Of a DNA stretch of 64,000 nt, positions 20,743-42,844 are shown piece by piece (positions within the stretch are counted from its first letter, which is position 1; every line of letters begins with the position of its first letter). The notes under the pieces were generated by a model. That model did no database searches and was not told where the DNA came from. It saw only the letters and a program-made list of their open reading frames with translations. Origin of the DNA: Candidatus Omnitrophota bacterium. GTDB taxonomy: Bacteria; Omnitrophota; Gorgyraeia; Zapsychrales; Fredricksoniimonadaceae. Where the stretch lies: assembly GCA_028870995.1 (NCBI GenBank), contig JAGWOI010000001.1:100782-164781 (forward strand), written 5' to 3'. The translations under genes and the position numbers were made by a program.

Positions 20743-22460
20743 TCATGGATACAACCCAGGAACGCATTTTAAAATCGCTCAAAGGCCTGCCGAATGTGAA
20801 TCCGGCGGATGTTGATGCCCTCCAGGAGATCCAGCAGGATAAAAGCATGAGCCTGGTGAAGGCCATCCTTAAGCAGGGCCTGGTCTCCGAGCAGGACCTG
20901 CTGGTGCTGCTCATGCGCGAGCTGCACATTCCTTCCATTGACCTGACGAAATACCGTCCGGACGATCGCCTCAAAACCCTTGTCAGCGAAAAAACCGCCC
21001 GGCAGTATGTGGTGGTGCCGCTTTCGTCGCTGGGACAGACCTTGACGGTGGCCATCGCCGACCCCTTGAATGTTTTTATCATGGACGATTTGCGCAACAT
21101 CACCGGCAAGGAAATCGAATGCGTGCTGGCACCGGCCAGCCAGATAGCGAAGGTCATCGACCGGTTCTATCAGGCGGCCCACAAGGAGCCGGCCTTCGAG
21201 ACACCCAAAGATTTCAAGGGTTTCGAGATACTCTCGTCCAAGGACAGCATGCAGGAGGCTTTTGCTTTTCAGGAAAAGGAAGCCATTGCGGTGGAAGAGG
21301 CGCCGGTCATCCGCATCGTCAATTTGATCATCAAGGAGGCGCTGCGGCAGAGGGCCTCGGACATCCATATAGAACCCCAGGAGGCCGGCATGCGGGTGCG
21401 CTACCGCATCGACGGGATATTGCAGGACATCCTGACCATCCCCAAGGAAACCAAGAACGCGGTGGCGGTGCGCATCAAGCTTATGGCCAAGCTGGATATC
21501 ACCAATACCCAGACGCCCCAGGATGGCCGGTTCAAGATGAAGATAGGCAAACAGGAAGTAGATTTCCGCGTGTCGATGCTTCCCACGACCTTCGGCCAAA
21601 AGATCGTCATGCGGGTATTGGATAAAAACAATCTTTCCATCGGCTTGTCCAGTTTGGGCTTTTCAAAACAGGCGCAAACCTTGTTGGAAGAGGCGGTTTA
21701 TAAACCCTACGGCATGATCCTGGTCACCGGTCCGACGGGCAGCGGCAAATCCACCACCCTTTATTCCCTCGTCAACAAATTAAATACCGCGGAGAAAAAT
21801 ATCATCACCATCGAAGAGCCGGTGGAATACCTGGTGGACGGCCTGACCCAGATCGAGGTCAAGCCGGAGATAGGCTTGAATTTTGCCATCGGCCTGCGCG
21901 CCGTGCTGCGGCAGTCCCCCGACGTGGTGATGGTGGGCGAGATCCGCGACGCGGAGACGGCGGACATTGCCATCAAGGCCTCGCTCACCGGGCAGATGGT
22001 GCTTTCGACCCTGCATACCAACAGCGCGGCCGACGCGGTCACCCGCCTGGTGGACATGGGGTTGGAGCCTTTTCTGGTGGCCTCTTCTCTGGTGCTCATC
22101 TGCGCCCAGCGCCTTTGCCGCCGTATCTGCGATTCCTGCAAAAGGCCCATGGAGATCCAGCCGGAGCTGCTGCAGAAGATCGAGCACCGGATCAAACCGG
22201 GGACGGTCTTGTACGAAGGCCGGGGTTGCGAGATGTGCCGCGGGACCGGATATAAAGGGCGGCTGGGGGTGACGGAAGTGCTGCAGATCGACGACACCAT
22301 CCGGGACATGCTGCTCAAGCGCTGCACTTCGATGGAGATCACCCGGTACGCCAAAGAAAATCAAGGGATGAAATTGCTTTTTGACGATGTCATTGATAAA
22401 ATGTTGGCTGGTGAGACTACTCTGACAGAAGTCTTTCGTGTCGCCAGTGAAGATGAATGA
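20739..22460 (+). CDS. Second full-length PilB/GspE family ATPase (paralog)
   Basis: Walker A 'GPTGSGKSTT', 'CRRICDSC...CEMC'. 573 aa with its own GspE_N domain. Confidence 0.85.
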   Translation: MIMDTTQERILKSLKGLPNVNPADVDALQEIQQDKSMSLVKAILKQGLVSEQDLLVLLMRELHIPSIDLTKYRPDDRLKTLVSEKTARQYVVVPLSSLGQTLTVAIADPLNVFIMDDLRNITGKEIECVLAPASQIAKVIDRFYQAAHKEPAFETPKDFKGFEILSSKDSMQEAFAFQEKEAIAVEEAPVIRIVNLIIKEALRQRASDIHIEPQEAGMRVRYRIDGILQDILTIPKETKNAVAVRIKLMAKLDITNTQTPQDGRFKMKIGKQEVDFRVSMLPTTFGQKIVMRVLDKNNLSIGLSSLGFSKQAQTLLEEAVYKPYGMILVTGPTGSGKSTTLYSLVNKLNTAEKNIITIEEPVEYLVDGLTQIEVKPEIGLNFAIGLRAVLRQSPDVVMVGEIRDAETADIAIKASLTGQMVLSTLHTNSAADAVTRLVDMGLEPFLVASSLVLICAQRLCRRICDSCKRPMEIQPELLQKIEHRIKPGTVLYEGRGCEMCRGTGYKGRLGVTEVLQIDDTIRDMLLKRCTSMEITRYAKENQGMKLLFDDVIDKMLAGETTLTEVFRVASEDE

Positions 22461-22482
22461 CCGGAGCAAGCCGGGGGCTTAA

Positions 22483-22911
22483 ATGGACGCTTATAAGGTT
22501 TTATTGGGCGAGATCCTGGTGCAGCGCAAAAGGATCACCCGCGAGCAGCTTGACGCTGCCCTCAAGAGGCAGAAGGAAAAGGGCGGCATCATCGGAGAGG
22601 TCCTGGTGGGTTTGGGGTTTCTCGATGAGCGTGATATCGTCGTAGCCCTGGTCATTCAGTGCGGGCTGCCCTATATCGCCGTCAACAAGTACGCCATTGA
22701 TCCGCAGATCGTGCGGCTGATCCCCAGGGACGTGGCCGAAAAGGAAAAAGTGATCGCCTTGGACCGTATCGGCGATGTCTTGAGTGTGGTGATGTGCAAT
22801 CCCTTGAGCGATGAACAGAAAAGCAGCCTGGAACATTTGACCCATTGCCGGGTGGCCACCTTCATTTCTACCAAAGCGGAAATTGAAGAAGCCATAGCCC
22901 GCAATTATTGA
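22483..22911 (+). CDS. Second stand-alone GspE_N (MshEN-like) domain protein
   Basis: 142 aa; 'LGEILVQRKRITREQLDAALKRQKEKGGIIGEVLV'. Confidence 0.6.
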   Translation: MDAYKVLLGEILVQRKRITREQLDAALKRQKEKGGIIGEVLVGLGFLDERDIVVALVIQCGLPYIAVNKYAIDPQIVRLIPRDVAEKEKVIALDRIGDVLSVVMCNPLSDEQKSSLEHLTHCRVATFISTKAEIEEAIARNY

Positions 22912-22914
22912 TCT

Positions 22915-24129
22915 ATGCCTACTTACTCATATTCTGCCCGTGATCAGGAAGGCAAGGACGTCGCCGGCCGGATCGCCGCCGATGACGAAGTCATGGTCGT
23001 GGCCGAGCTGCGCAAGCGTCAGCTGATCATTTTGGGCATTACGGAAGAAAAGCAGGAAACCGTTCAAAAGGCCTCCCCTAAAAAGCGTATCGGCAAGGTC
23101 AAGGCCGAAGACCTGGTCATTTTTACCCGCCAGTTCGCCACCATGGTGGACGCGGGGATACCTATCCTGCAGTCGCTGGAAGCCTTGATGGAGCAATCCT
23201 CCAATCCTAATCTTAAATCCGCCTTGACCGTCATTCATGAAGACATTCAACTGGGCAGCAGCCTTTCCAGTGCCTTCGAGAAGCACCCCAGGATCTTTGA
23301 TCAGTTGTATGTCAATATGATCCGTGTGGGGGAAAGCGGCGGGGTGTTGACCACCATCCTGGAACGTGTCGCCATGTACCAGGAAAAGAGCGAGCAGCTG
23401 CGCCAAAAGGTAAGGGGCGCCATGATCTATCCGGCGGTGGTCATGAGCATGGCCATGATCATCACCACGGGCTTGCTGATCTACGTGGTACCGACCTTTG
23501 CCCAGATCTATTCTTCGTTGGGCGCCAACCTGCCGGTCCTGACCCAGGTGTTGATCGATGTCAGCAACGCCCTTCAACATAATTTCATATTGATCGCCGC
23601 GGCCATCGGGCTGGCCATATTTCTTCTTGTCAAATATAGAAAAACGCCGGCAGGTCATCTCCAGACCGACCGTTTCCTGTTGAAGGTGCCTGTCTTTGGG
23701 GAATTGTTCTGCAAGGTCTCGGTCAGCCGTTTCTGCCGCACCCTGGCCACCCTGTCCCAAAGCGGGGTGCCCATCCTGGAATCCCTGGATATCGTGGGAA
23801 AAACCTGCGGCAACAAGGTCATCGAGATCCTGGTCGAGGACGTCAAAGCCAGCGTCAAGGAGGGGGAGAGCATTTCCGGGCCTTTGTCCAAGAGTACGGC
23901 CTTCCCGCTCATGGTCACCCGCATGATCTCCATCGGCGAGAAATCCGGGCAGCTGGACAAGATGCTTTCCAAGGTGGCGGAATTCTACGACGAGCAGGTG
24001 GATACGGCGGTGGAGAGTCTGACCAAATTGATCGAACCTTTTATTATTGCCTTTTTGGGGATCGTGGTGGGATTTATCGTGATCGCCTTGTTCCTGCCGA
24101 TATTGACCCTGGTGACGGTGATTCATTAA
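22915..24129 (+). CDS. pilC: Type IV pilus / T2SS inner-membrane platform protein PilC/GspF
   Basis: 404 aa with duplicated T2SS_F-like halves ('FTRQFATMVDAGIPIL' and 'FCRTLATLSQSGVPIL'). Confidence 0.85.
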   Translation: MPTYSYSARDQEGKDVAGRIAADDEVMVVAELRKRQLIILGITEEKQETVQKASPKKRIGKVKAEDLVIFTRQFATMVDAGIPILQSLEALMEQSSNPNLKSALTVIHEDIQLGSSLSSAFEKHPRIFDQLYVNMIRVGESGGVLTTILERVAMYQEKSEQLRQKVRGAMIYPAVVMSMAMIITTGLLIYVVPTFAQIYSSLGANLPVLTQVLIDVSNALQHNFILIAAAIGLAIFLLVKYRKTPAGHLQTDRFLLKVPVFGELFCKVSVSRFCRTLATLSQSGVPILESLDIVGKTCGNKVIEILVEDVKASVKEGESISGPLSKSTAFPLMVTRMISIGEKSGQLDKMLSKVAEFYDEQVDTAVESLTKLIEPFIIAFLGIVVGFIVIALFLPILTLVTVIH

Positions 24130-24969: not shown

Positions 24970-25515
24970 TTGGCCATTGACTTTACCGTTTCCTTGTCTT
25001 ATAATTTCCCCATTATGTTAGCGCTCATCATCATTGTCTTTGGTTTTCTGTCACGGATCGTCGTGCATACGCCTAATTTTTCGCCGGTCTTGAGCCTGAG
25101 CCTGTTTGCAGGCGTCTATCTTAAAGGCCGCCAGCCCTTTTGGGTGCCGCTGGCCCTGATGGCGTTGGGCGATGCTTTCCTGGGTTTTCATCCCATCTTT
25201 ATCTATACGTGGGGCAGTATTCTCATGATCAGCCTGACAGGCCTCTGGCTGAAAACCCATAAGAATTGGACCAACATCCTTTTGACCAGCCTATTGTCTT
25301 CCATCATTTTTTTTGTGGTAACCAATTTCGGAGATTTCCTGATTTTATATCCTCATACCATGGCCGGTTTACAGCATTGCTATATTGCGGCCATTCCTTT
25401 TTACCGCAGCACGCTTGTTTCAACTTGCGGCTATAGCCTTGTCTTATTTTCCCTTTGGGAATTTATTATTTTGCGTCGAGAAAATAGCATATCAACCAAG
25501 GAAAGCACGGTTTGA
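24970..25515 (+). CDS. Small polytopic membrane protein (possible ECF-type substrate-capture component)
   Basis: 181 aa, about 5 TM helices. Family assignment is uncertain. Confidence 0.25.
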   Translation: MAIDFTVSLSYNFPIMLALIIIVFGFLSRIVVHTPNFSPVLSLSLFAGVYLKGRQPFWVPLALMALGDAFLGFHPIFIYTWGSILMISLTGLWLKTHKNWTNILLTSLLSSIIFFVVTNFGDFLILYPHTMAGLQHCYIAAIPFYRSTLVSTCGYSLVLFSLWEFIILRRENSISTKESTV

Positions 25516-25665: not shown

Positions 25666-25705
25666 GGGAACACCCTCAATCGTTTAACGATTGAGGGTTT
25701 TTTAT
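25666..25705 (+). terminator. Perfect hairpin plus U-tract (CCCTCAATCG TTTAA CGATTGAGGG TTTTTTATTT) in the leader of the TonB-receptor gene
   Basis: 10-bp perfect stem followed by a run of T. It lies about 20 nt upstream of the ATG at 25721. Confidence 0.5.
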
Positions 25706-25720
25706 TTCGGGGAGGGTGGT

Positions 25721-27739
25721 ATGAGGATTTTTGTTATGCTGATGATAGGTGTTATCTTTGGTGCTAATTTGGTCAAAGGGCAGGAGGGGGGGGAATTGGA
25801 ACCGATCGTGGTCGAGGCCTCGCGCAGCAATGACACGGCCGGTCAAATGAACAAAGATGTGACCGTCATTACTGCCGCTGATATTGCCGCCTCGCCTGCC
25901 CAAAGTCTGCCGCAGCTGCTGAGCCAGGAGGCAGGTATCGATGCCAGGACCAACAGCAGCATCAAGGACACCCAGATCAATATGGGGCAGTTCGGGGAGT
26001 CAAGCACGGCCAATGTGCTTATCCTGGTCGACGGCAGGCGTCTGAATACGGCCGACCTGGCAGCGCCTGACCTTTCGCTCATCGACCTGAATTCAGTTGA
26101 TCATATCGAGATCATCCAGGGAGCGGGCAGCGTGCTTTACGGGGACAATGCCGATGGGGGGGTTATCAATATCGTCACCAAAAAAGGCATAGCAAACACC
26201 AAACCTTCGGTTTTGCTCACCAGCGAGGTCGGCAGTTATAAGGGTACCAAGGAGGGGATGTACCTGACCGGCGGTCTGCCGAAATTGTCTTACCAGTTTG
26301 ACTATGCCCATCAACAAAGCAATAATTACCGCACCAACAATCTTTATTGGGCCAATGACTACGGTGCCCGCCTGGATTATAACCCGACGGATGTCTTCGG
26401 CATCGATTTTTCTCAAGGGTATCACCTGGACCGCTATCGCCTTCCAGGGGCGATAAGTACGGACCAGATCAATACGGCCGGTTTCAGGGGTGTTCATTCC
26501 GGTTCGATTTCCTACGGCACGACCTCTGATTCTCATTTCGATCTGACCCCTCATCTTAGAGTTGAACAAGGACAAAGCCGGATGGATTGGTCCCTCTTTA
26601 CGTCATTTAGGAAGACCGATAATAATGTCGTCTATCCGAATTTTCCTGAGGCTCTTAATTATGAACGGGAGTCATATGAGTTCCAGCCGAAATTGATCTG
26701 GTCAATGCCGTTGACCGACCGCCTGGACAATAAATTGACCGGCGGTTATGACTACATTTATTATAAGGAGAACCGGCGCATCAACGTCACGGGAAGCCCG
26801 CAGGACATTGTTGATGCCAGGGAGGCTTCACAGGGGGTTTATTTGCTCGATGAGTTGACCATGGACCGCAAATGGCTGCTCAATGCAGGCGTTCGAGGTG
26901 CCTGGGCCGCCTACAATTTTCATCAAACACAGCCGCAGAGCCAGCTGGCCAAATTACTCCGTTCCGATACGACGGAAGGCTACGAAGCGGGGTTAGGGTA
27001 TAAGTATAACCGTTACTCAAAAATATTCGTCAATTATTCCCATACCTACCGCCTGCCTAATCTTGACGAGTTCTTTCAATATCCTTATCCGGGGTATAAC
27101 GGTTCGGCCATCAATACCGCGCTGACCTTCCAGAAGGGCAACCAATACCAGCTGGGTATCAGGGACAATACCTTCAAGGACGTCCATTTGGGGTTTATCG
27201 CCACTGAGGCCCAATATAAGAATGAGATTTACGACGACCTGATTGATTCCAGTGCGGTCTTTGCTAATGCCAATTACAACGCCAGGACCAGGCATTACAG
27301 CGAGGCGGGGGACATCGCGGTCGATCTCTTCGCCAAGAGAGTTTCGCCTTATGCCAACGTGACCTTCCAGCAGGCCAGCTTTATCAGCGGCCTTTATTCA
27401 GGCCATCAGATCCCCGATGTGCCGGACCATCTTGCCCATGCCGGCGTGATTTACCGGCCGCTGCCGGGTTTAAGCACAAGGATGCAAACCACCTTTGTCG
27501 GGAAACGCTTCGGTATCGGGGATGACCAGAACATTTACGCCAAGCTCAAGCGTTATGAGACAGTGGATTGGAATATTAAATATGATTATAAAAACATGGA
27601 ATTTTGGTTTGCGCTCAATAATATATTCAATAGGCAGTATTTTGTTTACGGCACCAGCTATGCCGCCGCATCCAATGATGAGGCGTATTACCCGGCGCCC
27701 GGCCGTAATGTGGCTGCCGGCCTAAAGATCAGGTTTTAA
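25721..27739 (+). CDS. TonB-dependent outer-membrane receptor
   Basis: SD GGGGAGGGTGG precedes the ATG at 25721; the TTG at 25691 lies inside the terminator. The protein has a signal peptide, a plug domain, a long beta-barrel, and a C-terminal '...GLKIRF' aromatic end. Confidence 0.85.
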   Translation: MRIFVMLMIGVIFGANLVKGQEGGELEPIVVEASRSNDTAGQMNKDVTVITAADIAASPAQSLPQLLSQEAGIDARTNSSIKDTQINMGQFGESSTANVLILVDGRRLNTADLAAPDLSLIDLNSVDHIEIIQGAGSVLYGDNADGGVINIVTKKGIANTKPSVLLTSEVGSYKGTKEGMYLTGGLPKLSYQFDYAHQQSNNYRTNNLYWANDYGARLDYNPTDVFGIDFSQGYHLDRYRLPGAISTDQINTAGFRGVHSGSISYGTTSDSHFDLTPHLRVEQGQSRMDWSLFTSFRKTDNNVVYPNFPEALNYERESYEFQPKLIWSMPLTDRLDNKLTGGYDYIYYKENRRINVTGSPQDIVDAREASQGVYLLDELTMDRKWLLNAGVRGAWAAYNFHQTQPQSQLAKLLRSDTTEGYEAGLGYKYNRYSKIFVNYSHTYRLPNLDEFFQYPYPGYNGSAINTALTFQKGNQYQLGIRDNTFKDVHLGFIATEAQYKNEIYDDLIDSSAVFANANYNARTRHYSEAGDIAVDLFAKRVSPYANVTFQQASFISGLYSGHQIPDVPDHLAHAGVIYRPLPGLSTRMQTTFVGKRFGIGDDQNIYAKLKRYETVDWNIKYDYKNMEFWFALNNIFNRQYFVYGTSYAAASNDEAYYPAPGRNVAAGLKIRF

Positions 27740-27742
27740 CGA

Positions 27743-28474
27743 ATGCAGAAAGCCATTTTCAATTGGAGCGGCGGCAAGGATTCTTCTTTGAGCCTCTATT
27801 ATCTTTTAAGGTCCAAGGAATTTGATATCCGGTATCTCGTCACTTCAGTCAATACCAAGTTCAACCGGATCTCCATGCATGGGGTGCGGGAAGCCTTGCT
27901 GCATCAGCAGGCTGAAAGTATCGGCATACCTTTACGTAAAATCATGGTGCCGGAGATGCCCACGATGGAGATTTACAATGACTTGATGGAGCAGGCGCTC
28001 GTCGGTTTCAAGAAAGAGGGGATAGGACATTCCGTATTCGGGGATATTTTTCTCGAAGATTTAAAGAAGTACCGGGAAGAACGCCTGGCGCGCGTGGGGA
28101 TGAAAGGCGTTTTTCCCATCTGGAGGATCCCTTCGCTTAAACTGGTGCGCGAGTTCATCGACCTGGGATTTAAGGCCGTGCTGGTCTGCGTGGACGAAAA
28201 GGTGCTGGACCGCTCCTTTGTGGGGCGGCCCTTGGATGAGGCCTTGTTGAAAGATTTGCCGGCCAAGGCTGATCCCTGCGGCGAAAACGGGGAGTACCAC
28301 TCTTTTGTCTACGATGGACCGATTTTCAGTTATCCCGTTGCCTTTGACATAGGCGAGATAGTGCACCGTGATTACGCTGCCGCCGTTCAGACAGGCAGCA
28401 GCGTTTGCTCAACCTCATCGCCGGCGGTGCACACGGGTTTTTGGTACTGTGATTTGATTCCTAAAGACGTATGA
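27743..28474 (+). CDS. Dph6-related PP-loop ATP pyrophosphatase (MJ0570-like)
   Basis: 'FNWSGGKDSSLSLYY' PP-loop motif. 243 aa. Confidence 0.65.
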   Translation: MQKAIFNWSGGKDSSLSLYYLLRSKEFDIRYLVTSVNTKFNRISMHGVREALLHQQAESIGIPLRKIMVPEMPTMEIYNDLMEQALVGFKKEGIGHSVFGDIFLEDLKKYREERLARVGMKGVFPIWRIPSLKLVREFIDLGFKAVLVCVDEKVLDRSFVGRPLDEALLKDLPAKADPCGENGEYHSFVYDGPIFSYPVAFDIGEIVHRDYAAAVQTGSSVCSTSSPAVHTGFWYCDLIPKDV

Positions 28475-29385
28475 GAATTGTTTCATTGATTGCCAGCGGT
28501 ACCGAGATCGTCTGCGCCTTGGGTTTTGAAGCGGCGCTGGTGGGGCGGTCCCATGAATGCGATCATCCCCCCGCCGTGCTGCGGCTGCCGGCCTGTTCCG
28601 AACCCAAATTCAATGTGGAAGGAAGCAGCCGGGAAATCGACGAGCGCGTCAAGACCATCGTGCGTGAGTCTTTGTCGGTGTACCGGATAGACGCCGAAAA
28701 GCTCAAAAACTTGAGGCCACAGGTCATCATCACCCAGGATCACTGCGAAGTGTGTGCCGTGAGCCTCAAGGATGTCGAGCAGGCTGTGTGCAGCTGGCTG
28801 GGGCCCGAAGTTAAGATCGCGGCCTTGCGGCCCAATGCCCTGGCGGATATTTGGCAGAACTTCAGGCAGGTGGCCGAGGTCCTGGGCTGCCCTTCGAAGG
28901 CTCAAGAGCTCATTGACCAGTGCCTGCCGCGTATGTCGGCCGTCCAGAAAAGAACAGGGAGCCTTCCCCGCCCCTCGGTGGCCTGTATTGAATGGATCGA
29001 GCCCCTGATGTGCGCCGGCAACTGGGTGCCGGAACTGGTGGCGATGGCCGGCGGCCGCGACCTGCTGGGCAAGCCGGGGGCCCATTCACCATGGATGCAA
29101 TGGGATCAATTAAGACAGGCTGATCCGGACATCATCATTGTCATGCCTTGCGGCTGGGACATCGGGCGTACCCGTCGGGAGATGCCCGTTTTAACGAAAC
29201 AGGAGGGATGGCACCAGCTCAAAGCCGTCTGCAGCAATAAGGTTTACCTGGCGGACGGCAATCAGTATTTCAACCGTCCCGGCCCGCGGCTGGTGGAATC
29301 GCTCGAGATCCTGGCGGAAATCATCCATCCCCAGGCTTTTTCATTCGGCCACTACAGGAAAGGCTGGCAAAGGCTGCTTGCCTGA
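28471..29385 (+). CDS. BtuF/TroA-like (cobalamin / Fe-siderophore type) substrate-binding protein
   Basis: 'RIVSLIASGTEIVCALG' N-terminus and two-lobe architecture. It is coupled to the upstream gene by a 4-nt overlap. Confidence 0.6.
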   Translation: MRIVSLIASGTEIVCALGFEAALVGRSHECDHPPAVLRLPACSEPKFNVEGSSREIDERVKTIVRESLSVYRIDAEKLKNLRPQVIITQDHCEVCAVSLKDVEQAVCSWLGPEVKIAALRPNALADIWQNFRQVAEVLGCPSKAQELIDQCLPRMSAVQKRTGSLPRPSVACIEWIEPLMCAGNWVPELVAMAGGRDLLGKPGAHSPWMQWDQLRQADPDIIIVMPCGWDIGRTRREMPVLTKQEGWHQLKAVCSNKVYLADGNQYFNRPGPRLVESLEILAEIIHPQAFSFGHYRKGWQRLLA

Positions 29386-29758
29386 TAAAAATAAGGAGGG
29401 CTTGATGAAGGATTATGTTTGGCATAAGCAGACCGTTTCCCCTGACCTGGAGATCATCGACTGCTCGGCTTATGATCCTCTGAAGGATTTCCGCCGCGAT
29501 CCCACCGGCGCCTATGTCCTCATTCGCTGCGAGGGCGCCCAGGGGGTCATCGAAGTCGCCGTCTGCGACAAGAACCATGTGATCACGCATGTTTTTCGGG
29601 GCCGCAAGGCCCAGGACCTCTACTTTTCCTTGTTTGAATATGAAAAGGAGCATGGGACGGCATGGTTCGACCGCAAGGACCATGCGGCCTATTTGGGAAA
29701 GGAGCTTAAGAAGGCCGAACTGGCCCTTGAGGGAAAAGGGGATTACGTCCAGGAATAA
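29378..29758 (+). CDS. Hypothetical cytoplasmic protein
   Basis: 126 aa, no family recognised. Its start overlaps the preceding gene. Confidence 0.3.
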   Translation: MPDKNKEGLMKDYVWHKQTVSPDLEIIDCSAYDPLKDFRRDPTGAYVLIRCEGAQGVIEVAVCDKNHVITHVFRGRKAQDLYFSLFEYEKEHGTAWFDRKDHAAYLGKELKKAELALEGKGDYVQE

Positions 29759-29850
29759 GCCGGGCAAAGATATTGCCAAACAATAGGGAATATGATATTC
29801 TTTAAAAAACGGAAAATCTCCACACTGTTTAAATATCTCCTGAGGTCATC

Positions 29851-30270
29851 ATGAAATCAAAATTCGAGACAGCCGAGGATTGGGTCAAGGTTTCGGTTGA
29901 TTTGAAGGTCTATCCGCTGCAGGCCGTCCATTCTTCCGGCTATGCTTTTATGGACCGGGCCCATGTCCGGCTTGAGCAGGAAAAGAAGGATACGGTGTCC
30001 GTATGGCTCAAACCCAAGGAAGTTAAAAAGGACCTGCAGGCCCTGGCGCTGGAATATTCGGACGAGCTACTTAACTACGCGCACTATTTCACCAGTCTGA
30101 AGGCCAATGCCGAGAATATGAAGCTTTTATTGCAAAGGGCCCTCTTTTCAGCCGCCCCGTCGATCGTTAAAGAGGCTGAAGAAAAAGAAATCGAGAACTT
30201 GATCAAGGAACTCGAAGCGGAAGAAAAGCAAAGTTCTTCTAAATCAAAGTCTCCCAAGGCTGAAAAATAA
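29851..30270 (+). CDS. Small acidic protein with Lys/Glu-rich tail; first gene of the rSAM locus (possible maturase accessory/chaperone; HxsD-like position)
   Basis: 139 aa. It lies immediately upstream of the HxsB-like radical SAM gene with a 12-nt gap. Confidence 0.3.
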   Translation: MKSKFETAEDWVKVSVDLKVYPLQAVHSSGYAFMDRAHVRLEQEKKDTVSVWLKPKEVKKDLQALALEYSDELLNYAHYFTSLKANAENMKLLLQRALFSAAPSIVKEAEEKEIENLIKELEAEEKQSSSKSKSPKAEK

Positions 30271-30282
30271 TCATTTGCCGCC

Positions 30283-31668
30283 ATGGCCTCGACCTCGTCC
30301 ATCCTTCCTTTTAATTCAGAAAAAATTGATAATAGGTATTTGGTGACCAATATAATGGGTTGCTGGGATGCCTTGGATGAAGCGGAATTCCGCCAGCTTA
30401 ACAGCCTGCGCGTTCCCGAAGGCAGCGGTCTGTATAACCGCCTTTTGGAAAAAGGGTTGATTTTGGACGGAAACAACATCAACCGCATCATCAGCGAGTA
30501 CAGGCGTCTTAATACCAATTTATTCAACGATACCAGCCTGCATATTGCCGTTGTCACCAAACGCTGCAATCTGCGCTGTAATTATTGCCATGCCGAAGGC
30601 GGGGCGGCCAATGACGATATGTCCATAGAGACGGCCACCCGCGTCCTGCAGTACCTTTTTGATGTGCGCAATAACAATGTGACCCTTGAATTCCAGGGTG
30701 GGGAGCCGCTTTTAAACTGGCCGGTGGTCAAGTTCCTCACCGAACACGCCCGCAAGTTCAATACCCTGGGCAAGAATTTGAGCATAGTACTCGTGACCAA
30801 TATGCTGCTTTTAGATGATGAAAAAATACGCTTTTTGGCCGAACATGACGTCGATGTGTGCACCTCCATGGACGGTCCGGCGGAGATCCATGACCAAAGC
30901 CGCAAGGATGTCGGGGGGCGCGGGTCGCATGCCCAATTGATGGAAAAAATCGAACATTACACCAGCCGGACCGGCCGGAAGGTCCATATGCTGCCCACCA
31001 TCACCAGGCATTCGCTGGCACATCCGGAGAGGATCATCGACGAATACCTGCGCCTGGGGCAGGGGGAGATCGCCTTAAGGCCGGTCAACAAGATCGGCTA
31101 TGCCCGGCACCATTGGGACGAGATCGGTTATACGGCCCGGGAATTCAACGGCTTTTATACCAGGGCGATGGCGTATATCATGAAACTCAACACCTCCGGC
31201 ACCTATATCAGCGAGCGCATCGCCCGGACCATCCTGATCAAGGTCCTGCTCAAAGAAGATCCTTATTATGTGAACATGATGAATCCCAGCGGCGACGGCC
31301 GGGCCGTGATGACCTATGGCGTCGACGGCGGATGCTACCCGACCGATGAGGCCAGGATGCTGGGCGATGAGATGTTCCGTTTAGGCAGCTTTGTAAATGA
31401 GAGCTATGACAACATGCTTAATAAGGAAAATCTGCTTTTTTTGTTGAGTGCCGGATGCTCGGACTTATGGAACTACCGTTCGGCCTTCAGCCCCTGGATG
31501 GGGGTCGACCCTGTGGTCAATTATGCCATGGAAAAGAATATTATTCCCAAAGGCGACTCACGGCTTCAGCAGGTGCTGACGCACCAATTCCGGACGGTTT
31601 TTTCGTACCTGTTGGGTGATAAAAAGTATGCCGAGGCCTTTCAACGCTGGATGCAGCCTGCGGCTTAA
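30283..31668 (+). CDS. Radical SAM peptide-maturase-like enzyme (HxsB-like architecture)
   Basis: 'VTKRCNLRCNYCHAEGG' CxxxCxxC. 461 aa with an N-terminal extension and a C-terminal auxiliary Cys region ('DGGCYPTDE...AGCSDLW'). Confidence 0.8.
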   Translation: MASTSSILPFNSEKIDNRYLVTNIMGCWDALDEAEFRQLNSLRVPEGSGLYNRLLEKGLILDGNNINRIISEYRRLNTNLFNDTSLHIAVVTKRCNLRCNYCHAEGGAANDDMSIETATRVLQYLFDVRNNNVTLEFQGGEPLLNWPVVKFLTEHARKFNTLGKNLSIVLVTNMLLLDDEKIRFLAEHDVDVCTSMDGPAEIHDQSRKDVGGRGSHAQLMEKIEHYTSRTGRKVHMLPTITRHSLAHPERIIDEYLRLGQGEIALRPVNKIGYARHHWDEIGYTAREFNGFYTRAMAYIMKLNTSGTYISERIARTILIKVLLKEDPYYVNMMNPSGDGRAVMTYGVDGGCYPTDEARMLGDEMFRLGSFVNESYDNMLNKENLLFLLSAGCSDLWNYRSAFSPWMGVDPVVNYAMEKNIIPKGDSRLQQVLTHQFRTVFSYLLGDKKYAEAFQRWMQPAA

Positions 31669-31677
31669 GGAGTGCTG

Positions 31678-31944
31678 ATGAAAAAAACGACTAAAAAAAG
31701 CAAGATCATTCAAAAGACAACGCCCTTGGTCAAATCGCTGGGGGAACTGATAAAGGATGAGGATGGCTTTGTCAGCAAGGAGACCATTTTAAAGGTCGGG
31801 CTGTCGACGGTTGCGGCTTTGGGGGTGGTGGGTGCGATGACCGACATCTCGTCGGGGCAGAATACGGCCACGCATACCAACACGCTGTCGACAACCAAGA
31901 ATTGCATTAACCACACCAACGTAACGACGCACACATCTTATTAA
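31678..31944 (+). CDS. Candidate RiPP precursor peptide (Lys-rich leader; Thr/Ser/Asn-rich core with H-T-N / H-T-N / H-T-S repeats and one Cys)
   Basis: SD AAGGAG lies 5 nt upstream of the ATG at 31678. The core is '...ATHTNTLSTTKNCINHTNVTTHTSY'. It sits immediately downstream of the radical SAM gene. Confidence 0.4.
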   Translation: MKKTTKKSKIIQKTTPLVKSLGELIKDEDGFVSKETILKVGLSTVAALGVVGAMTDISSGQNTATHTNTLSTTKNCINHTNVTTHTSY

Positions 31945-37993: not shown

Positions 37994-39112
37994 ATGCAGA
38001 ATTCAAAGAATGAGCTTAAGCGGCTTGAGGGAATAAAGAATGATGAAGTCCTGGTAGGCCCCCGAAGCGTTTCCATCGGGATCACCAGAATATGCAATAT
38101 TACCTGCAAATATTGTCTTGGTCAGCCTTTTGATCATCTTGATTCCAAGAATGTGGTGGATCGGCCGCCGTATATAGACATGGCCATTTTTTACAGGCTC
38201 GTGGATGATTGCTCTGAGCTTGGAGTTGAGTCCATGACCCTTTGCGGAGGCGAGCCGACCCTCCACCCGCAGATCAAGGATATGATCGCCTATGTCAGGG
38301 GCAAGGACATGCAGGTGTCCATCAATACCAATGCGACATTCAAAGAAGAATTGGTCAAGGAGTTGGGGCAGGTTGCGGCCCTTAATATCGATCTGGCGAC
38401 GCTTAAAATGGAGGATTATCAAAGTATCCAAGGAGGCACGAAACATCAGTTCAACAGGGTCCTGGCCAACATAAGCGCTGTTGCCGAGTTCAAGAAGGCG
38501 AACAAAGGTCCTGAGCTTAAGATCGTTTATGTCCTGAACAAGGATAATTTTGATCAAATTGATGAAATGATCAAATGGGCCGTCAAAACAGGCATTAACA
38601 GCATTTATTTTAAGATCATGCGGTTTAATGAAAATATCAAGGACCTGGCGATCCTTGAGCCGGATGTCGTCCGGCTTAAGAATTCCCTGCAATTGGCGCT
38701 CAAGAATGGGCTTTATAAGCATATTAAAACCAACCTCAAGGAATTGGCCCGTTTTGTTCTGGATGTCAAATTCAACAAGGAATGCGAAACCATAAATTTT
38801 TATGACTTGTTTGAAGGCGATCTCTATTTCCATGCGTCTTTCAAGGAAGGTTTCAAATGCTATTACGGCTGGTATTCCGCCGACATCGGTCCCTGGGGGC
38901 ACGTGATCCTTTGCTGTACCAACAGGATGACCTTTGTGGGCAATATCTATGAGTATTCCTTCAAAGAGATCTGGAATTCTGCTTATGCCCGGCAGATCAG
39001 GCTCACCATGAAAAATCAATTCGATATCAATAAGAATTTCTTCAAGCCTTGCCATTACTGCCCTAATGTCCATTTTAATACTACGATAGATGCGGCAACG
39101 CAGCACGGTTGA
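37994..39112 (+). CDS. Radical SAM / SPASM-domain protein (paralog family member 3)
   Basis: 'GITRICNITCKYCLG' and 'CGGEPTLHP'. C-terminal 'ILCCTNRMTFVGNIYE...CHYCPNV'. Confidence 0.8.
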   Translation: MQNSKNELKRLEGIKNDEVLVGPRSVSIGITRICNITCKYCLGQPFDHLDSKNVVDRPPYIDMAIFYRLVDDCSELGVESMTLCGGEPTLHPQIKDMIAYVRGKDMQVSINTNATFKEELVKELGQVAALNIDLATLKMEDYQSIQGGTKHQFNRVLANISAVAEFKKANKGPELKIVYVLNKDNFDQIDEMIKWAVKTGINSIYFKIMRFNENIKDLAILEPDVVRLKNSLQLALKNGLYKHIKTNLKELARFVLDVKFNKECETINFYDLFEGDLYFHASFKEGFKCYYGWYSADIGPWGHVILCCTNRMTFVGNIYEYSFKEIWNSAYARQIRLTMKNQFDINKNFFKPCHYCPNVHFNTTIDAATQHG

Positions 39113-39140
39113 GCCGATCAAAAGGCCGCAGGGAGGAGTT

Positions 39141-39869
39141 ATGTTCTTACGATCTGGGATATTGGCGGTTGTTCTGTTGATATCTGGTGGCATTTATTGC
39201 CAGGCCCAGGGTGTTGAAGAAGCCTCAAATCCCGGTCCGGGCGTGGATGAGCTCATCCATAAACAATTAAATTTGGCTAAATATGAGGCGGTTTTGGGCG
39301 ATTTGTCGTCATGTGCAGGAGATCCGGGCTGTATCGCCGATGCGGCATTCATTAAGAATACGGCTTGCGCCGCTGCCGCGTGCAGGCAGGGTAAGGATCC
39401 CGTTGATTGTTTCAGTTCCAATGAAATTTCCTATAATTCCATGCCACAAAAGGCAAGGATCATGGATTCGATATGCGCCTGGATAAAATCGCCAAGCCCA
39501 GAAACAAGGCAAGCGGTCTTACAGCAGATTCCCAATGCGACGGATCGTGATTTGGCGGGGCAGCAGGCGTATCTTGCGGCCCTGCAAGGGTCTGCCGAGA
39601 AATGCCAGGACATTGTTAAGAATTATATCGGCCCCTACGGCCCGGCATGGACGACAGAGTTGTACGTAACCTTATCCGGCTGCCGCATCCTTGCCAAGGA
39701 GACGACAGTTCAAGAGGAAGAAAGAAGTTTTCTGATATGGTTTGAGGTCTCGCAGGGGAAGGGGCAGTGCGCCGATATCCCTATTCCTGAGATGCAAAAA
39801 GCATGCAGTTCTCCGGGAGCTGTGGTTTTATTACGGGGCACAGACCAATACAGCCCTGTTAACCAATAA
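39141..39869 (+). CDS. Secreted Cys-rich protein (10 Cys in the mature part) of unknown function
   Basis: Start is the ATG at 39141 after SD GGAGG. Signal peptide 'MFLRSGILAVVLLISGGIYCQAQG'. Lies between rSAM paralog 3 and the GT39-like gene. Confidence 0.4.
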   Translation: MFLRSGILAVVLLISGGIYCQAQGVEEASNPGPGVDELIHKQLNLAKYEAVLGDLSSCAGDPGCIADAAFIKNTACAAAACRQGKDPVDCFSSNEISYNSMPQKARIMDSICAWIKSPSPETRQAVLQQIPNATDRDLAGQQAYLAALQGSAEKCQDIVKNYIGPYGPAWTTELYVTLSGCRILAKETTVQEEERSFLIWFEVSQGKGQCADIPIPEMQKACSSPGAVVLLRGTDQYSPVNQ

Positions 39870-41306
39870 ATGAAATCCCTGACCTGGAAAGCGAAAGAGC
39901 CGTACATTGTTTTAACTCTTTTTATCATCGGATTCTTTATAAGGCTTTACCGCATTGATGCCCCAGGTTTATGTGATTTTGAAATAATTACCGCCCTGCG
40001 GGTCCACCAACCGTTCTGGAACACCATCTTTCTTGCCGGTGAATCGACATTCCCGCCGCTTTATTATATCTTTCAAAATTTATGGGTGCACGTGTTTGGG
40101 GCAAGTGAATGGGCATTAAGGTTCCCGTCAGCCGTTTTTTCCAGTTTGACCATTATTGCCGTTTATAAGCTGGGATCCGAACTTATTGGTAAAAAGGCCG
40201 GCCTTATAGCCTGCGCCTTAATGGTTTTTTCGCCTTTTGCCGTTAATTATGCGCAAATGGCAAAGATGTATTCATTGTTCTGGCTATTTTCGACGGTCAC
40301 TTTCGTATACTTTTTCCGTCTTTTCAAAAATGAAAGCAGGGGGAACTGGTTTTCTTACGCTTTTGTTTCCCTATTGAGTTGTTACACCATGTACACGGGG
40401 TTTTTACTTCTCGTGGCACAGAACCTGATGTTCTTTATGATGGGCGCAAGAAGGCAATGGAAAAGGTGGCTTTTATGCCAGGCCGTCATTATTTTATGCT
40501 GCATTCCCTGGATCGTGTTCTTCTTGAGTTCCAAGCATGTCGATTATGATTTTAACCTGCCGTACTCGGGACTTAATTATTTCACTTTTTTGGGTGAGGC
40601 ATTCGTATGGCTCATTGGTAATTACAATGACCGGGTTTGGAGCTTGAATTTCCTTTTGGATGTTTTCCTGCTGGGCTGCTTTCTGGCGGGCGCCTTAAAT
40701 CTTTATTTGAAGGAAAAGAAACTTGCCTTGAGATCAAACCACTATGGTCTTTTGATGTGGGTTGTGATCCCTATTGTTTTATATTTCATTGCGGACAGAG
40801 CATATTTGCATACCTTTAAAGATACCAGATTAAGGTACATAGGGTTTATTCAAGTTCCGTTATTCTTGATGATAGGCAGCCAAATGATCAATTTCCGCGG
40901 CTGGGCAGGGAGAATCCTCATTTCAGCGGTGTTTATCCTGGCCCTGAATAACACCTATGTGTATTTTAAAGAAAATTTAAGACTGCCTCAGCAGGATTGG
41001 CGTGTTTTGACAAGGGAATTAAGCGCGAAAGTAGGAAAGGACGATGTTGTTCTATTTTCTGATGACTATACGATGAGGGTGTTTGAATACTATGACAAAA
41101 AAGATACCGGCAGGTTTTTCGAGGTGTCTTTGGCCCATTGCTCATCGTCATTATTATCGAAGCTGGGAATTCTTAAACCCGCGACCAATTCCATCTTTAT
41201 CGTATATGGCAAACCGCAGGCCCCGCAAATGGAATTGAAGGGGTATTCTTTAACCTACCGGGATTTTCTCGGGGGCACAAACTTTCTGCAATATCAGCGC
41301 AATTAG
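39870..41306 (+). CDS. GT-C fold membrane glycosyltransferase, family 39 (ArnT / protein-O-mannosyltransferase-like)
   Basis: 478 aa polytopic. The N-terminal region 'FIIGFFIRLYRIDAPGL...' is typical of GT39/GT83 enzymes that use polyprenyl-phosphate sugars. Confidence 0.6.
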   Translation: MKSLTWKAKEPYIVLTLFIIGFFIRLYRIDAPGLCDFEIITALRVHQPFWNTIFLAGESTFPPLYYIFQNLWVHVFGASEWALRFPSAVFSSLTIIAVYKLGSELIGKKAGLIACALMVFSPFAVNYAQMAKMYSLFWLFSTVTFVYFFRLFKNESRGNWFSYAFVSLLSCYTMYTGFLLLVAQNLMFFMMGARRQWKRWLLCQAVIILCCIPWIVFFLSSKHVDYDFNLPYSGLNYFTFLGEAFVWLIGNYNDRVWSLNFLLDVFLLGCFLAGALNLYLKEKKLALRSNHYGLLMWVVIPIVLYFIADRAYLHTFKDTRLRYIGFIQVPLFLMIGSQMINFRGWAGRILISAVFILALNNTYVYFKENLRLPQQDWRVLTRELSAKVGKDDVVLFSDDYTMRVFEYYDKKDTGRFFEVSLAHCSSSLLSKLGILKPATNSIFIVYGKPQAPQMELKGYSLTYRDFLGGTNFLQYQRN

Positions 41307-42844
41307 GCATTGTTTAAAGCAAGCCCGCTGTCCTTGGTCCGTAATAAATGCCATTTTGTCCTTAAAAGCTGGTCTATTTGCGTGTTTTCAGTGCCTATAA
41401 AAAAGTTTCTGATCAAAAAGAATAACCGCCACGGCCTGGTTATATAGGCGGTCAAATAAAACATCAAGCATAGGAAATATTGAGAGAATACTAAAAATTG
41501 CCTTCCCATCCTGGGGTTATATGTCCTGGAACTTTTGCCTGAACGCGCCAGGGAGGAATAATAGTAATCCGTGCCCCAGGTCATTCGACCTTCTTGGATC
41601 AGTTTGTTCGTATCGGCGCTGCCGGGATACGGGGCGAACATCATAAGGGCGGCATCCTGACAGCCGATCCAGGCGGCTTTGATCAAAAATAGCAACGACT
41701 GGAATTGGTCCCGCAGGGTTTCCTCGGGATGTCCGACGATCATATTGATACGCACATACATTCCCGCTTTGCAGGCAGAACGGACCGCGGAAAGAACGTT
41801 GGCCAATTTAACATTCTTTTTCATGACCCTTAATAATCTTTCTGATCCGCTCTCCGGCGCTAAAACGATGTTCCGGCATCCCGTCTTGTACATCATGCGC
41901 AGCGTTTCAAAATCCAGGGCCTCGCTACGGGTCCCGGTGGGGAGCTGCCAGGTCAGGCTGAACGGTTGTTGGGAAAGAATATCGCAAAATTCCCGTATCC
42001 ATTCTTTTCGGATGATGGAGGTAAGGTCGCAGAAATTCAGATTATTAATATTATAAGATTGGACATAGGTCTTGATTTCGTCCACGACATCAGCCGGCGG
42101 CCTGGTTATATAGCGGTTGCCCCACATGGAGGCATTTGAACAAAAAGTACAGGCGTAGGGACATCCGCGCGTGGCCAGAATAGGCATGGAACGACCCCGG
42201 TGGACCCCCCACGCGTCTTTCTTCGCAAGATAATTTTCCACCGGTATGAGATCCCAAGCGGGCCGGGGCAAGGCGTCGATATGTTGTATTCTCTTTGAGG
42301 GAGGGATGGCCTGTGAAGGCCCGCTTTTATAAGCGGCCACCCCGGGTAGGGAAGAGGTCGCTTCCCCGGACTCAAGCGCATGGATCAGTTCTATTATCTT
42401 ATGTTCTCCTTCGCCTAAAACACAATAATCAACGGCATCTGTTTCTTCAAATATCCTGTTCCAAAAAGCCGTCGCATTCTCCCCTCCCAGGATGATGATC
42501 ATGGAAGGATAACGTTTTTTGATCTTTTCGGCGATCTCACAGAGCAGGGGCCACTCGTGCAGGAACATATTTGTCATGCCGACTATGCGTGAATCAGGCG
42601 GGATGCGCTCCACAATGTCATCCGGCGACAGGCCCTGGCGTGTTAATGAATCCAGGGAACTGGGAATGGCTTCAAAGCGCTCTAGGGCCGATCCGGCCGC
42701 GTCGATGACAAAAACCTCGTGCCCTTCTTGACGGATAATAGCCGCGATATAGGCAAGCCCGATGGGCAGGCACGCGCCAAAAAAACTAAAGTTGGATTTA
42801 AGCTGCAGGATGGGGGGGCGGATCAAACAGATCTTCATAGCCAT
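41303..42844 (-). CDS. Cobalamin-binding (class B) radical SAM protein
   Basis: Start refined to M34 (ATGGCTATGA overlapping the GT2 stop). 'MKICLIRPP...' Rossmann-like B12-binding N-domain, then 'ATRGCPYACTFCSNA'. Confidence 0.8.
   Translation of the reverse strand: MAMKICLIRPPILQLKSNFSFFGACLPIGLAYIAAIIRQEGHEVFVIDAAGSALERFEAIPSSLDSLTRQGLSPDDIVERIPPDSRIVGMTNMFLHEWPLLCEIAEKIKKRYPSMIIILGGENATAFWNRIFEETDAVDYCVLGEGEHKIIELIHALESGEATSSLPGVAAYKSGPSQAIPPSKRIQHIDALPRPAWDLIPVENYLAKKDAWGVHRGRSMPILATRGCPYACTFCSNASMWGNRYITRPPADVVDEIKTYVQSYNINNLNFCDLTSIIRKEWIREFCDILSQQPFSLTWQLPTGTRSEALDFETLRMMYKTGCRNIVLAPESGSERLLRVMKKNVKLANVLSAVRSACKAGMYVRINMIVGHPEETLRDQFQSLLFLIKAAWIGCQDAALMMFAPYPGSADTNKLIQEGRMTWGTDYYYSSLARSGKSSRTYNPRMGRQFLVFSQYFLCLMFYLTAYITRPWRLFFLIRNFFIGTENTQIDQLLRTKWHLLRTKDSGLALNNA

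Follow-up and report, generated by a model that had tools for sequence, protein, structure and literature searches.

A probable divergent His-Xaa-Ser cassette with a prepilin-like precursor peptide in Omnitrophota

What is made by a radical S-adenosylmethionine (SAM) enzyme whose apparent substrate is an 88-residue peptide that begins like a prepilin and ends in histidine triads? This question is raised by a locus in a genome of Candidatus Omnitrophota (contig JAGWOI010000001.1), located in a stretch of 64 kb referred to here as the window, in which a small accessory protein, a 461-residue radical SAM enzyme and the peptide are encoded one after another. An earlier reading of this DNA made without database searches (the sequence-only reading) had pointed out these three open reading frames (ORFs) and the strong Shine-Dalgarno sequence of the peptide gene, an arrangement that is confirmed here. 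It had also compared them with the four-gene His-Xaa-Ser (Hxs) system, which consists of a repeat peptide (HxsA), two radical SAM enzymes (HxsB and HxsC) and HxsD. According to the data presented below, the cassette is very probably a divergent system of the Hxs family. A fuller proposal, to which a probability of about 0.5 is given, is that it represents a reduced, Omnitrophota-specific branch of this family, whose precursor is modified, cleaved by an A24-family prepilin-type peptidase, and finally anchored in the membrane or borne on a pilus.

HxsB, HxsD and the precursor peptide

The radical SAM enzyme of the window matches the HxsB model TIGR03978 over its full length (positions 1-466 of 466) with 367.8 bits, against a cut-off of 370, and the next families score far lower (PapB 116, SCIFF maturase 116, and anSME 88 bits). 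Its best family is therefore HxsB, as the sequence-only reading had proposed, and not anSME or PqqE, the assignments that it had considered damaging. An orthologue from a deep clade of relatives (L030) exceeds the cut-off with 388.3 bits, and the window enzyme is 32-34% identical to the annotated hxsB genes of proteobacterial plasmids. A CX3CX2C motif (C95, C99, and C102) follows an N-terminal region of about 85 residues. The closest solved structure is that of CteB (5wgg; 94 bits), with residues 85-371 of HxsB aligning with residues 100-380 of CteB, and the region ahead of the radical SAM core matches the N-terminal part of CteB in position. By sequence comparison, HxsB is a CteB-like radical SAM enzyme of the type that matures peptides made by the ribosome and modified after translation (RiPPs). 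CteB is a maturase that forms thioethers in SCIFF peptides, whereas the Omnitrophota substrate holds a single Cys and the window enzyme lacks most of the SPASM cysteines.

The 139-residue protein encoded upstream has only one NCBIfam match, HxsD (TIGR03976), with 26.6 bits against a cut-off of 50. It carries the motif ELLNYAHYF in place of LLNDYxLRE, and its orthologues in related genomes hold PF27806 (HxsD) in precomputed annotation. The only NCBIfam match of the peptide is in turn HxsA3 (NF038309; 23.7 bits, cut-off 65), and the same model is matched by all of its 115 aligned homologues. Scoring of the HxsA-D models, which had been suggested as a check, thus returned the predicted families for the three proteins.

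The tail of the peptide reads ...QNTATHTNTLSTTKNCINHTNVTTHTSY, with H-T-N at residues 66-68 and 79-81, H-T-S at residues 85-87, a single Cys (C76) and a C-terminal Tyr (Y88), in agreement with the three copies of an H-T-[N/S] repeat and the lone Cys noticed before. Three H-x-[NS] triads within a 29-residue tail are statistically not overwhelming alone. Among 5.8 billion proteins searched, 193 homologue clusters were found at E ≤ 0.01, and all those that are named come from metagenome-assembled genomes (MAGs) of Candidatus Omnitrophica/Omnitrophota; the identical sequence is annotated as KGK03_00670. Among the 115 aligned homologues, no variation is seen at H66, N68, H79, N81 and Y88, and conservation is at least 90% at C76, T80, T83, T84, H85 and S87, with a freely variable segment from the first triad to the Cys. 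This conservation by columns indicates that the ORF is a real gene and that its motif is under selection. The alignment that had been advised therefore finds both the H-T-N/S positions and the Cys conserved, and the fear that the small ORF might lack conservation in relatives is dispelled.

The family is wider than the window's own clade. When 1.84 billion cluster representatives were searched with a profile, about 80 clusters of proteins of 70-150 residues were returned, many of them ending in HxSY, and H-x-S-Y is the C terminus of 192 of the 257 family members. Many deeper relatives bear true tandem HxS repeats, three to seven per peptide (for example, HTSHAAHTSHPSHASTHASHPSY and ...HTSHPSHGSHSSY). 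HTNVTTHTSY of the window peptide can be aligned with these repeats, for which reason its tail is considered a degenerate version of them, with one H-x-S and two H-x-N that are not in tandem. No paralogue of the peptide was found within the window, and searches of the PDB with peptide profiles yielded chance matches alone (HEAT-like alphaRep proteins and EF-hand segments with KDEDG-like strings). An EF-hand reading of KDEDGFVSKE was ruled out, as its Ca ligands would be out of register.

Gene content and synteny, like the homology and residue conservation above, are read directly from the sequences. Homologue contigs were collected from NCBI, JGI, ENA and Logan and searched by tblastn with the window's proteins, and the counts of loci for gene positions are drawn from 90 distinct peptide genes. 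The HxsB-like gene lies directly upstream of the peptide gene in 47 of 51 loci, and the HxsD-like gene upstream of it in 33 of 37. In the window, the intergenic gaps from hxsD on are 12, 9 and 25 nucleotides, and all of them remain between 9 and 25 through the next two genes, so that these genes look like a single operon; a weak promoter-like site is found at 29773-29801, ahead of the hxsD-like gene. The AAGGAG sequence of the peptide gene overlaps the stop codon of HxsB and is located 5 nucleotides ahead of the ATG at 31678. An alternative GTG start at 31672 would give a peptide of 90 residues, but the ATG is favoured because every homologue begins with MKK.

The main departure from the four-gene system concerns HxsC. 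There is no gene between HxsB and the peptide in the window, and HxsC (TIGR03977) was not found beside HxsB. Other candidates in the window (33188, 34169 on the minus strand, 37994, 43601 on the minus strand, and 51174 on the minus strand) reach at most 49 NCBIfam bits on HxsC, for a cut-off of 268, and were rejected, since other families fit them better. In the window's clade, neither an HxsC-like nor an HxsD-related gene was found in any of 25 loci; in the deep clade, the former is present in 7 and the latter in 11 of 12 loci. The window's clade has lost both genes. The deep clade shows the order HxsD, HxsD-related protein of 73 residues (NF038315), HxsC-like radical SAM enzyme, HxsB and peptide, in which the HxsC-like enzyme scores 175 bits on HxsC4 and 86-106 on HxsC, and the peptide 46.7 bits on HxsA3. 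The window order is HxsD-HxsB-peptide, and differs from the canonical HxsD-HxsB-HxsC-HxsA found in 99.6% of the described Hxs systems. The proposed likeness to the four-gene system is supported for HxsB, more weakly so for HxsD and an HxsA3-type substrate, and fails for HxsC, leaving a three-gene version. It is the tandem HxS repeats and the HxsC-like partner of the deeper relatives that argue for the window set being a divergent His-Xaa-Ser system.

The best models for the peptide and for the partners in deep relatives are variants defined in NCBIfam, namely HxsA3 (NF038309), HxsC4 (NF038332) and HxsD_rel (NF038315), and the small-peptide architecture of HxsA3 is shared along the whole profile (positions 1-81 in L030). 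The Omnitrophota scores are below the cut-offs of these variants (23.7-46.7 against 65 for HxsA3, 175 against 500 for HxsC4, and 23 against 41 for HxsD_rel), which places these proteins outside the curated families. Hxs variants as such are therefore already recognized by NCBI; the unexpected feature here is the prepilin-type leader with its A24 peptidase and the coupling to a pilus operon.

The C-terminal half of HxsB is also reduced. After residue 200, the only cysteines of the window enzyme are C351 and C392, the same two that are kept in the C-terminal half of L007, the relative nearest to it (84% identity). Cysteines at 275, 336, 351 and 392 are retained by most members of the window's clade, the deep clade conserves six (at the window-equivalent positions 275, 336, 351, 354, 409 and 425), and a proteobacterial HxsB shows the C-terminal pattern CxxCx5C...C. 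The Pfam SPASM model does not match the window enzyme, whose C-terminal half is not Cys-rich like the SPASM domains that ligate auxiliary 4Fe-4S clusters. The usual SPASM-type auxiliary cluster is doubtful in this protein, and its chemistry may therefore differ from that of canonical HxsB.

The contrast between the two cysteines of the window enzyme and L007 and the six of deeper relatives, together with the loss of HxsC, could be explained if the cassette were a decaying remnant, with an inactive enzyme and a peptide that works unmodified. Nevertheless, the ORFs and the CX3CX2C motif are intact, HxsB and HxsD are kept beside the peptide in the window's clade (31 of 34 and 23 of 25 loci, respectively), and the His triads are invariant. 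The retention of the enzyme and the invariance of the triads indicate purifying selection on the enzyme-substrate pair, and decay is a very improbable explanation.

The leader of the peptide and the A24 peptidase

The N-terminal half of the peptide, rich in Lys, had been described as looking like a leader. The idea of a leader is maintained, with eight Lys in the first 30 residues and one in the tail, but its nature is different from what that description suggested, as it consists of a motif similar to those of Flp prepilins followed by a hydrophobic helix. The family consensus is [LF]-[MILV]-K-D-E-[DS]-G↓F-[VI]-[ST]-K-[ED]-[TN]-I-L-K-[VI]-G (the arrow marks the putative cleavage site), and precedes the hydrophobic stretch. 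Across 245 family members, the Gly at -1 is conserved in 100%, the Asp at -3 in 97%, the Glu at -2 in 98%, and an acidic residue at +5 in 87%. The window peptide itself, with G30↓FVSKE35 and then ILKVGLSTVAALGVVGAM, has the features of a class III signal. Six annotated plasmid-borne Flp/type IVb prepilins read ...RFLKDESG↓ATAIEYGLIAALIA..., and hhalign aligns the profile of the deep family with them at 71.6% probability (P 3.5e-5) over 21 columns, with the Gly and the Glu at +5 in register.

The Omnitrophota peptides share with Flp/type IVb prepilins a leader of 25-30 residues ending in F-x-K/R-D-E-x-G, the Glu at +5, the hydrophobic helix, and a mature form some 50-60 residues long. Both also have a nearby A24 peptidase without a recognizable methyltransferase domain, like TadV/CpaA in the case of Flp. 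In contrast, the peptides hold Lys at +4 and +9 instead of the A-T-A-I-E-Y-G-L-I core and do not match Flp_Fap, their neighbours are of the PilB/PilC/PilMNO type rather than TadA/B/C/RcpA, and their tail is rich in His, Thr and Asn and paired with a radical SAM enzyme.

In the A24 proteins, both catalytic-Asp motifs (SYTD and GGD[VA]KLF, which is GGDVKLF in the window) are intact, as is a C-terminal PFAP; a PDB relative of the peptidase was not detected by sequence. Its gene is located within 6 kb of the peptide gene in 26 of 33 loci, and in 13 of 13 in the deep clade. In this latter clade, PilB or PilC is encoded within 9 kb of the peptide in none of nine loci, and no ORF but the peptide has a class-III-like signal. 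Processing by the A24 peptidase at G30 is considered an even proposition.

Other Hxs substrates follow a different route. HxsA of Escherichia coli has an ordinary Sec signal in residues 1-22 (PMC13128918). A plasmid of Methylobacter sp. YRD-M1 (NZ_CP091425.1; L102, 3298-3570) encodes, upstream of hxsB-hxsC, a 90-residue "hypothetical protein" that is an unannotated HxsA, with a Sec signal (...MDANA↓A), the sequence ...HSSHSSHSSHVSSRY, the repeats HYSHRSHSSHSSHSSHVSSRY, and a terminal Tyr; a gene of the thermonuclease family comes after hxsC. On these precedents, the first 60 residues of the window peptide could be a long Sec-type signal whose n-region doubles as a RiPP leader, with signal peptidase I freeing a periplasmic peptide of 25-45 residues, for instance a metal-binding peptide or a soluble effector, and with the A24 peptidase serving other substrates. 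The deep-clade peptides indeed show AxA-like sites right before the first His (SFA↓GHT, VFA↓AHT, AEA↓, and AQA↓), the window's clade offers a usable S-S-G↓Q site, and Lys at +4 and +9 would suit the n/h boundary of a signal peptide better than the helix of a pilin. However, such a signal leaves unexplained both the A24 gene in every deep-clade locus, where there is no other class III substrate and no pilus gene, and the near-invariant D-E-x-G of the whole family and its alignment with Flp leaders. On balance, the Sec route seems unlikely.

In the window's clade, the cassette is associated with genes for a type IV pilus. PilB is encoded at most 9 kb upstream of the peptide in 12 of 18 loci, PilC within 5.5 kb in 9 of 19, and most of the scanned loci show no pilin-like ORF other than the peptide. 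The order that recurs in relatives is MshEN-PilB-PilB-MshEN-PilC-coiled coil-HxsD-HxsB-peptide-p259-glycosyltransferase (p259 being an exported helical protein), followed on the opposite strand by a radical SAM gene and the A24 gene. The window has every gene of this module in a rearranged order, with p259, the A24 gene and the opposite-strand radical SAM gene interspersed with some ten additional genes for radical SAM enzymes and glycosyltransferases.

Proposed maturation and comparison with known systems

The following account of the chemistry, of the cleavage site and of the product's destination is a proposal. HxsB and HxsD would act in the cytoplasm, HxsB binding the conserved leader, and would modify the H-T-N, H-T-N and H-T-S triads, and possibly C76 or Y88. 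The likeliest chemistry would be either a cross-link from the C2 of His to the C-beta of the third residue, similar to that of triceptides, or the change of +8 Da observed on the SHRSS of E. coli, and the second radical SAM enzyme and the GT-B glycosyltransferase may further modify the Thr/Asn-rich tail. The precursor would insert into the membrane with its N terminus inside and its C terminus outside, and the A24 aspartyl peptidase would cut after the invariant Gly30. The resulting product of 58 residues would retain the hydrophobic helix, and would be anchored in the inner membrane with its modified His-rich tail in the periplasm. As an alternative fate in the window's clade, the product could be a very small pilin-like subunit assembled by the flanking PilB, PilB and PilC, although incorporation into the pilus is judged unlikely. 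The same holds for the more elaborate version of this fate, namely a radical-SAM-modified mini-pilin whose Flp-like leader doubles as the recognition element for HxsB/HxsD, and which carries cross-linked triads and possibly sugars and is polymerized by PilB/PilC.

Triceptide chemistry is suggested by the substrate. The triceptide synthases HtkB, HaaB and YhhB are radical SAM/SPASM enzymes that act on the His-X-X motifs HTK, HAA and HNR, respectively (PMC11499958). The Omnitrophota cassette shares with them a RiPP maturase of the radical SAM/SPASM type and His-X-X triads, since HTN, HTN and HTS are all conserved in the peptide and fit the aromatic-X-X pattern. However, the only Hxs modification measured so far is of +8 Da and not of -2 Da, and the window HxsB matches the models of cyclophane synthases (XyeB, GrrM/OscB, FxsB, YhhB, and AmcB) with 59-72 bits, for cut-offs of 310-450, through the radical SAM core only.

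The Hxs system of E. coli (HXS; HxsD-HxsB-HxsC-HxsA) is an antiphage system in which the modification of +8 Da is found on the SHRSS of HxsA, and its substrate represents a precedent for an HxS effector that is matured by radical SAM enzymes, processed at its N terminus and exported (PMC13128918). The statement of the sequence-only reading that no chemistry had been established for Hxs systems has thus been superseded in part (PMC13128918). The Omnitrophota cassette shares with this system, and with the families TIGR03976-03979, a full-length HxsB homologue, an HxsD-like gene upstream of it, a substrate downstream with His-x-Ser/Asn triads near its C terminus, an export signal and an expected N-terminal processing. 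In contrast, it lacks HxsC, its substrate of 88 residues has no peptidoglycan-binding domain, the five basic HxS repeats of E. coli are replaced by H-T-N, H-T-N and H-T-S, and the Sec leader by a prepilin-like one. It also includes an A24 peptidase, a second and unrelated radical SAM enzyme, a glycosyltransferase and an exported helical protein, and lies inside a pilus operon. In addition, 99.7% of the described Hxs systems belong to Pseudomonadota (PMC13128918).

The homology to HxsB, HxsD and HxsA3 raises the possibility that the Omnitrophota cassette is also an antiphage system, in which the modified periplasmic tail blocks the entry of phage DNA and is held by a membrane helix rather than by a domain binding peptidoglycan. 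Phages commonly use type IV pili as receptors, and a guard linked to the pilus is conceivable. In E. coli, the periplasmic barrier to DNA entry requires both the HxS repeats and the radical SAM enzymes (PMC13128918). Against this interpretation, HxsC, which is essential in E. coli and part of an HxsC-HxsD core complex, is missing from all 25 loci of the window's clade. The substrate moreover has no peptidoglycan-binding domain, and its tail holds one Lys and three His, which makes it much less basic than the repeats of E. coli. The cassette occupies a fixed position in a housekeeping-type pilus operon across many genomes, instead of being patchy or island-like, and PADLOC, whose library predates HXS, returned generic viperin-like matches to the radical SAM core only. 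A role in phage defence is thus improbable.

Several observations weigh against the proposal of an A24-cleaved Hxs precursor anchored in the membrane or borne on a pilus. HxsC, essential in E. coli (PMC13128918), is absent here, and with only two cysteines in the SPASM half, the auxiliary cluster of HxsB, and perhaps its activity, may be altered. The resemblance to Flp is confined to the motif of 21 columns, and the window's own, less diverse clade aligns with Flp prepilins at a probability of only 22.7% (P 9e-4). None of the 115 homologues matched a pilin model (Flp_Fap, N_methyl, or TIGR02532) in Pfam/NCBIfam scans at E ≤ 1, in which two weak matches to DUF4244 were the sole noteworthy extra. 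The Lys residues conserved at +4 (91%) and +9 (96%) are atypical of pilins, whose N-terminal helix is uncharged apart from Glu5, and the hydrophobic stretch of deep-clade peptides terminates in sites similar to those of signal peptidase I. In the window, the A24 gene is 14 kb away from the peptide, another protein with a class III signal is encoded at 52200-53444, and the A24 gene of this clade could simply serve the pilus operon. Finally, the AlphaFold2 model of the peptide (helix 34-58 and hairpin 64-85) has a low confidence (predicted local distance difference test, pLDDT, of 59.5), and was taken as weak support only.

The interest of the proposal lies in the fact that Hxs chemistry is unsolved beyond one shift of +8 Da in E. 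coli. With a substrate of 88 residues, one HxsB-type enzyme and no HxsC, the Omnitrophota branch is a simpler test case that could reveal the activity of HxsB itself. If the link to A24 is true, it would join the maturation of peptides by radical SAM enzymes with the processing of type IV prepilins, two fields that are unlinked in the literature searched, where no paper was found tying Hxs systems to Omnitrophota, prepilin peptidases or pili. Aspartyl A24 prepilin peptidases would then be a new class of RiPP leader protease; a 2023 review of these proteases does not mention aspartyl or A24 peptidases (PMC10885120). If the product is a mini-pilin, it would be the first RiPP to serve as a subunit of a type IV filament, and would suggest that the entire Hxs family builds His-rich structures displayed on the envelope. 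The cassette also suggests that a surface or periplasmic structure is modified in Omnitrophota. This uncultured phylum comprises ultra-small and possibly predatory bacteria, whose pili are thought to mediate host contact (PMC10066038).

Neighbouring genes and further copies of the cassette

The features of the window that belong to the cassette or to its conserved surroundings are collected in Table 1.

Table 1. Coordinates of the cassette, the parts of its peptide and the associated genes in the window
Feature	Position	Strand	Basis or remark
HxsD-like small accessory protein, 139 aa	29851-30270	+	TIGR03976 match
HxsB-like radical SAM maturase, 461 aa	30283-31668	+	TIGR03978 end-to-end match
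Shine-Dalgarno sequence AAGGAG of peptide gene	31667-31672	+	Read from sequence
HxsA3-like precursor peptide, 88 aa	31678-31944	+	NF038309 match and homologue clusters
Leader, residues 1-30: Lys-rich start, then LGELIKDEDG, ending at invariant Gly30	31678-31767	+	Proposed A24 site G30↓F31
Hydrophobic helix, about residues 37-55, ILKVGLSTVAALGVVGAMT	31786-31842	+	Read from sequence; AlphaFold2 helix 34-58, low confidence
His-rich core, residues 62-88	31861-31941	+	Invariant or near-invariant columns; aligned to the tandem repeats (HxS) of deeper relatives
A24-family prepilin-type aspartyl peptidase, 294 aa	46155-47039	+	Pfam Peptidase_A24, 30 bits; proposed leader peptidase
Type IV pilus genes: MshEN-domain, two PilB-like ATPases, second MshEN-domain, PilC	18524-24129	+	Pfam MshEN, T2SSE 441/436 bits, T2SSF 225 bits
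Coiled-coil protein, 277 aa	24134-24967	+	Between pilC and hxsD in relatives
pilM, then pilN- and pilO-sized ORFs (by size only)	53579-55851		
GT-B glycosyltransferase-like protein, 401 aa	31970-33175	+	Pfam Glyco_tran_28_C 24.5 bits; paralogue 49943-51184
Radical SAM/SPASM protein, 338 aa	33188-34204	+	Pfam Radical_SAM and SPASM; same tightly spaced operon
Exported all-helical Cys-containing protein p259	39090-39869	+	Sec-type signal peptide
Second conserved radical SAM protein, 334 aa	51174-52178	-	Best NCBIfam PqqE-like 69.6 bits; HxsC not in top matches

Among the genes that accompany the peptide, the GT-B gene is found downstream of it in 20 of 22 loci of the window's clade, and a distant relative (P0247) shares the order GT28_C, radical SAM/SPASM and DUF2334. 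A p259-like gene is encoded downstream of the peptide in 47 of 60 loci by tblastn, directly after it in relatives and displaced in the window. In p259, six Cys and the motif G-x-Y-G-P-x-W (GPYGPAW in the window) are invariant, and the AlphaFold2 model of the protein is all-helical (pLDDT 77), with uninformative structural neighbours. The 334-residue radical SAM gene is syntenic in 24 of 34 loci, on the opposite strand, and is paired with the A24 gene in relatives.

In the window, the pilus genes are split from hxsD by a block (25691-29758) that encodes a TonB-dependent receptor, an ATP pyrophosphatase similar to diphthine-ammonia ligase (Dph6), a Peripla_BP_2 protein and a DUF4346 pterin-binding-like protein. 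The position of the receptor (25691-27739) and the binding protein (28471-29385) directly upstream of a His-rich core with Cys and Tyr, itself beside a radical SAM enzyme, could suggest that the peptide is a secreted RiPP, either a metallophore or a bacteriocin, with these proteins as its uptake system. However, none of the related loci has the block at this position, and their hxsD adjoins pilC and the coiled-coil gene; the block is therefore an insertion peculiar to the genome of the window, so that the metallophore reading based on the receptor and the binding protein was rejected. The conserved cassette moreover includes no exporter and no C39/ABC protease, and the hydrophobic segment favours membrane retention or routing through the Sec or pilin pathways. 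A secreted product of this kind is quite improbable. A gene for a DUF6580 membrane protein (24970-25515) comes after the coiled-coil gene of the window.

The interval between pilC and pilM (30283-52178 of the window) forms an island with an unusual wealth of radical SAM genes, at least ten in number. Three encode proteins with B12-binding domains (41303-42943 and 44702-45973, both on the minus strand, and 48276-49937). Glycosyltransferases are represented by the GT28-like genes at 31970 and 49943, a GT2 at 42835 on the minus strand, and a PMT_2/GT-C at 39870. The island also holds a DUF2334/polysaccharide deacetylase-like gene (35299) and a pair of genes for the alpha and beta subunits of an E1 dehydrogenase (36009 and 36965). 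The role of this radical SAM island may be decoration, either of the peptide or of a glycan at the surface.

The other protein of the window with a class III signal (52200-53444, minus strand) is encoded divergently from pilM. It has 414 residues, is very rich in Cys, and shows a textbook signal, MHKRG↓QSIIEYILIAILVILGIVF. This large protein, of a pilin-like or an adhesin-like kind, matched no Pfam or NCBIfam model, and a check of the first 28 related loci did not detect it within 10 kb of the peptide.

Variations of the cassette were observed in other genomes. In one Omnitrophota genome (L001, 3140-7885), a second HxsD paralogue followed by three genes of the radical SAM type (381, 516 and 490 residues) is located upstream of HxsD-HxsB-peptide, which indicates that HxsD-like proteins may partner several kinds of radical SAM enzymes. 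Some genomes have two copies of the peptide gene (L006/L008, 10001-16142; L051; and L052). In L006, one copy lies right after pilC and the coiled-coil gene, without adjoining HxsD or HxsB, and is separated by a DDE transposase from a second, complete HxsD-HxsB-peptide set, and L052 shows a tandem pair of peptide genes with a p266-like gene between them. Lastly, seven contigs with the cassette (L011, L014, L018, L019, L021, L025, and L026) are labelled as "uncultured Planctomycetales". The identity of their proteins with Omnitrophota proteins is nevertheless 60-80%, which looks like taxonomic mislabelling of MAGs or else a wider distribution of the cassette in the Planctomycetes-Verrucomicrobia-Chlamydiae (PVC) group.

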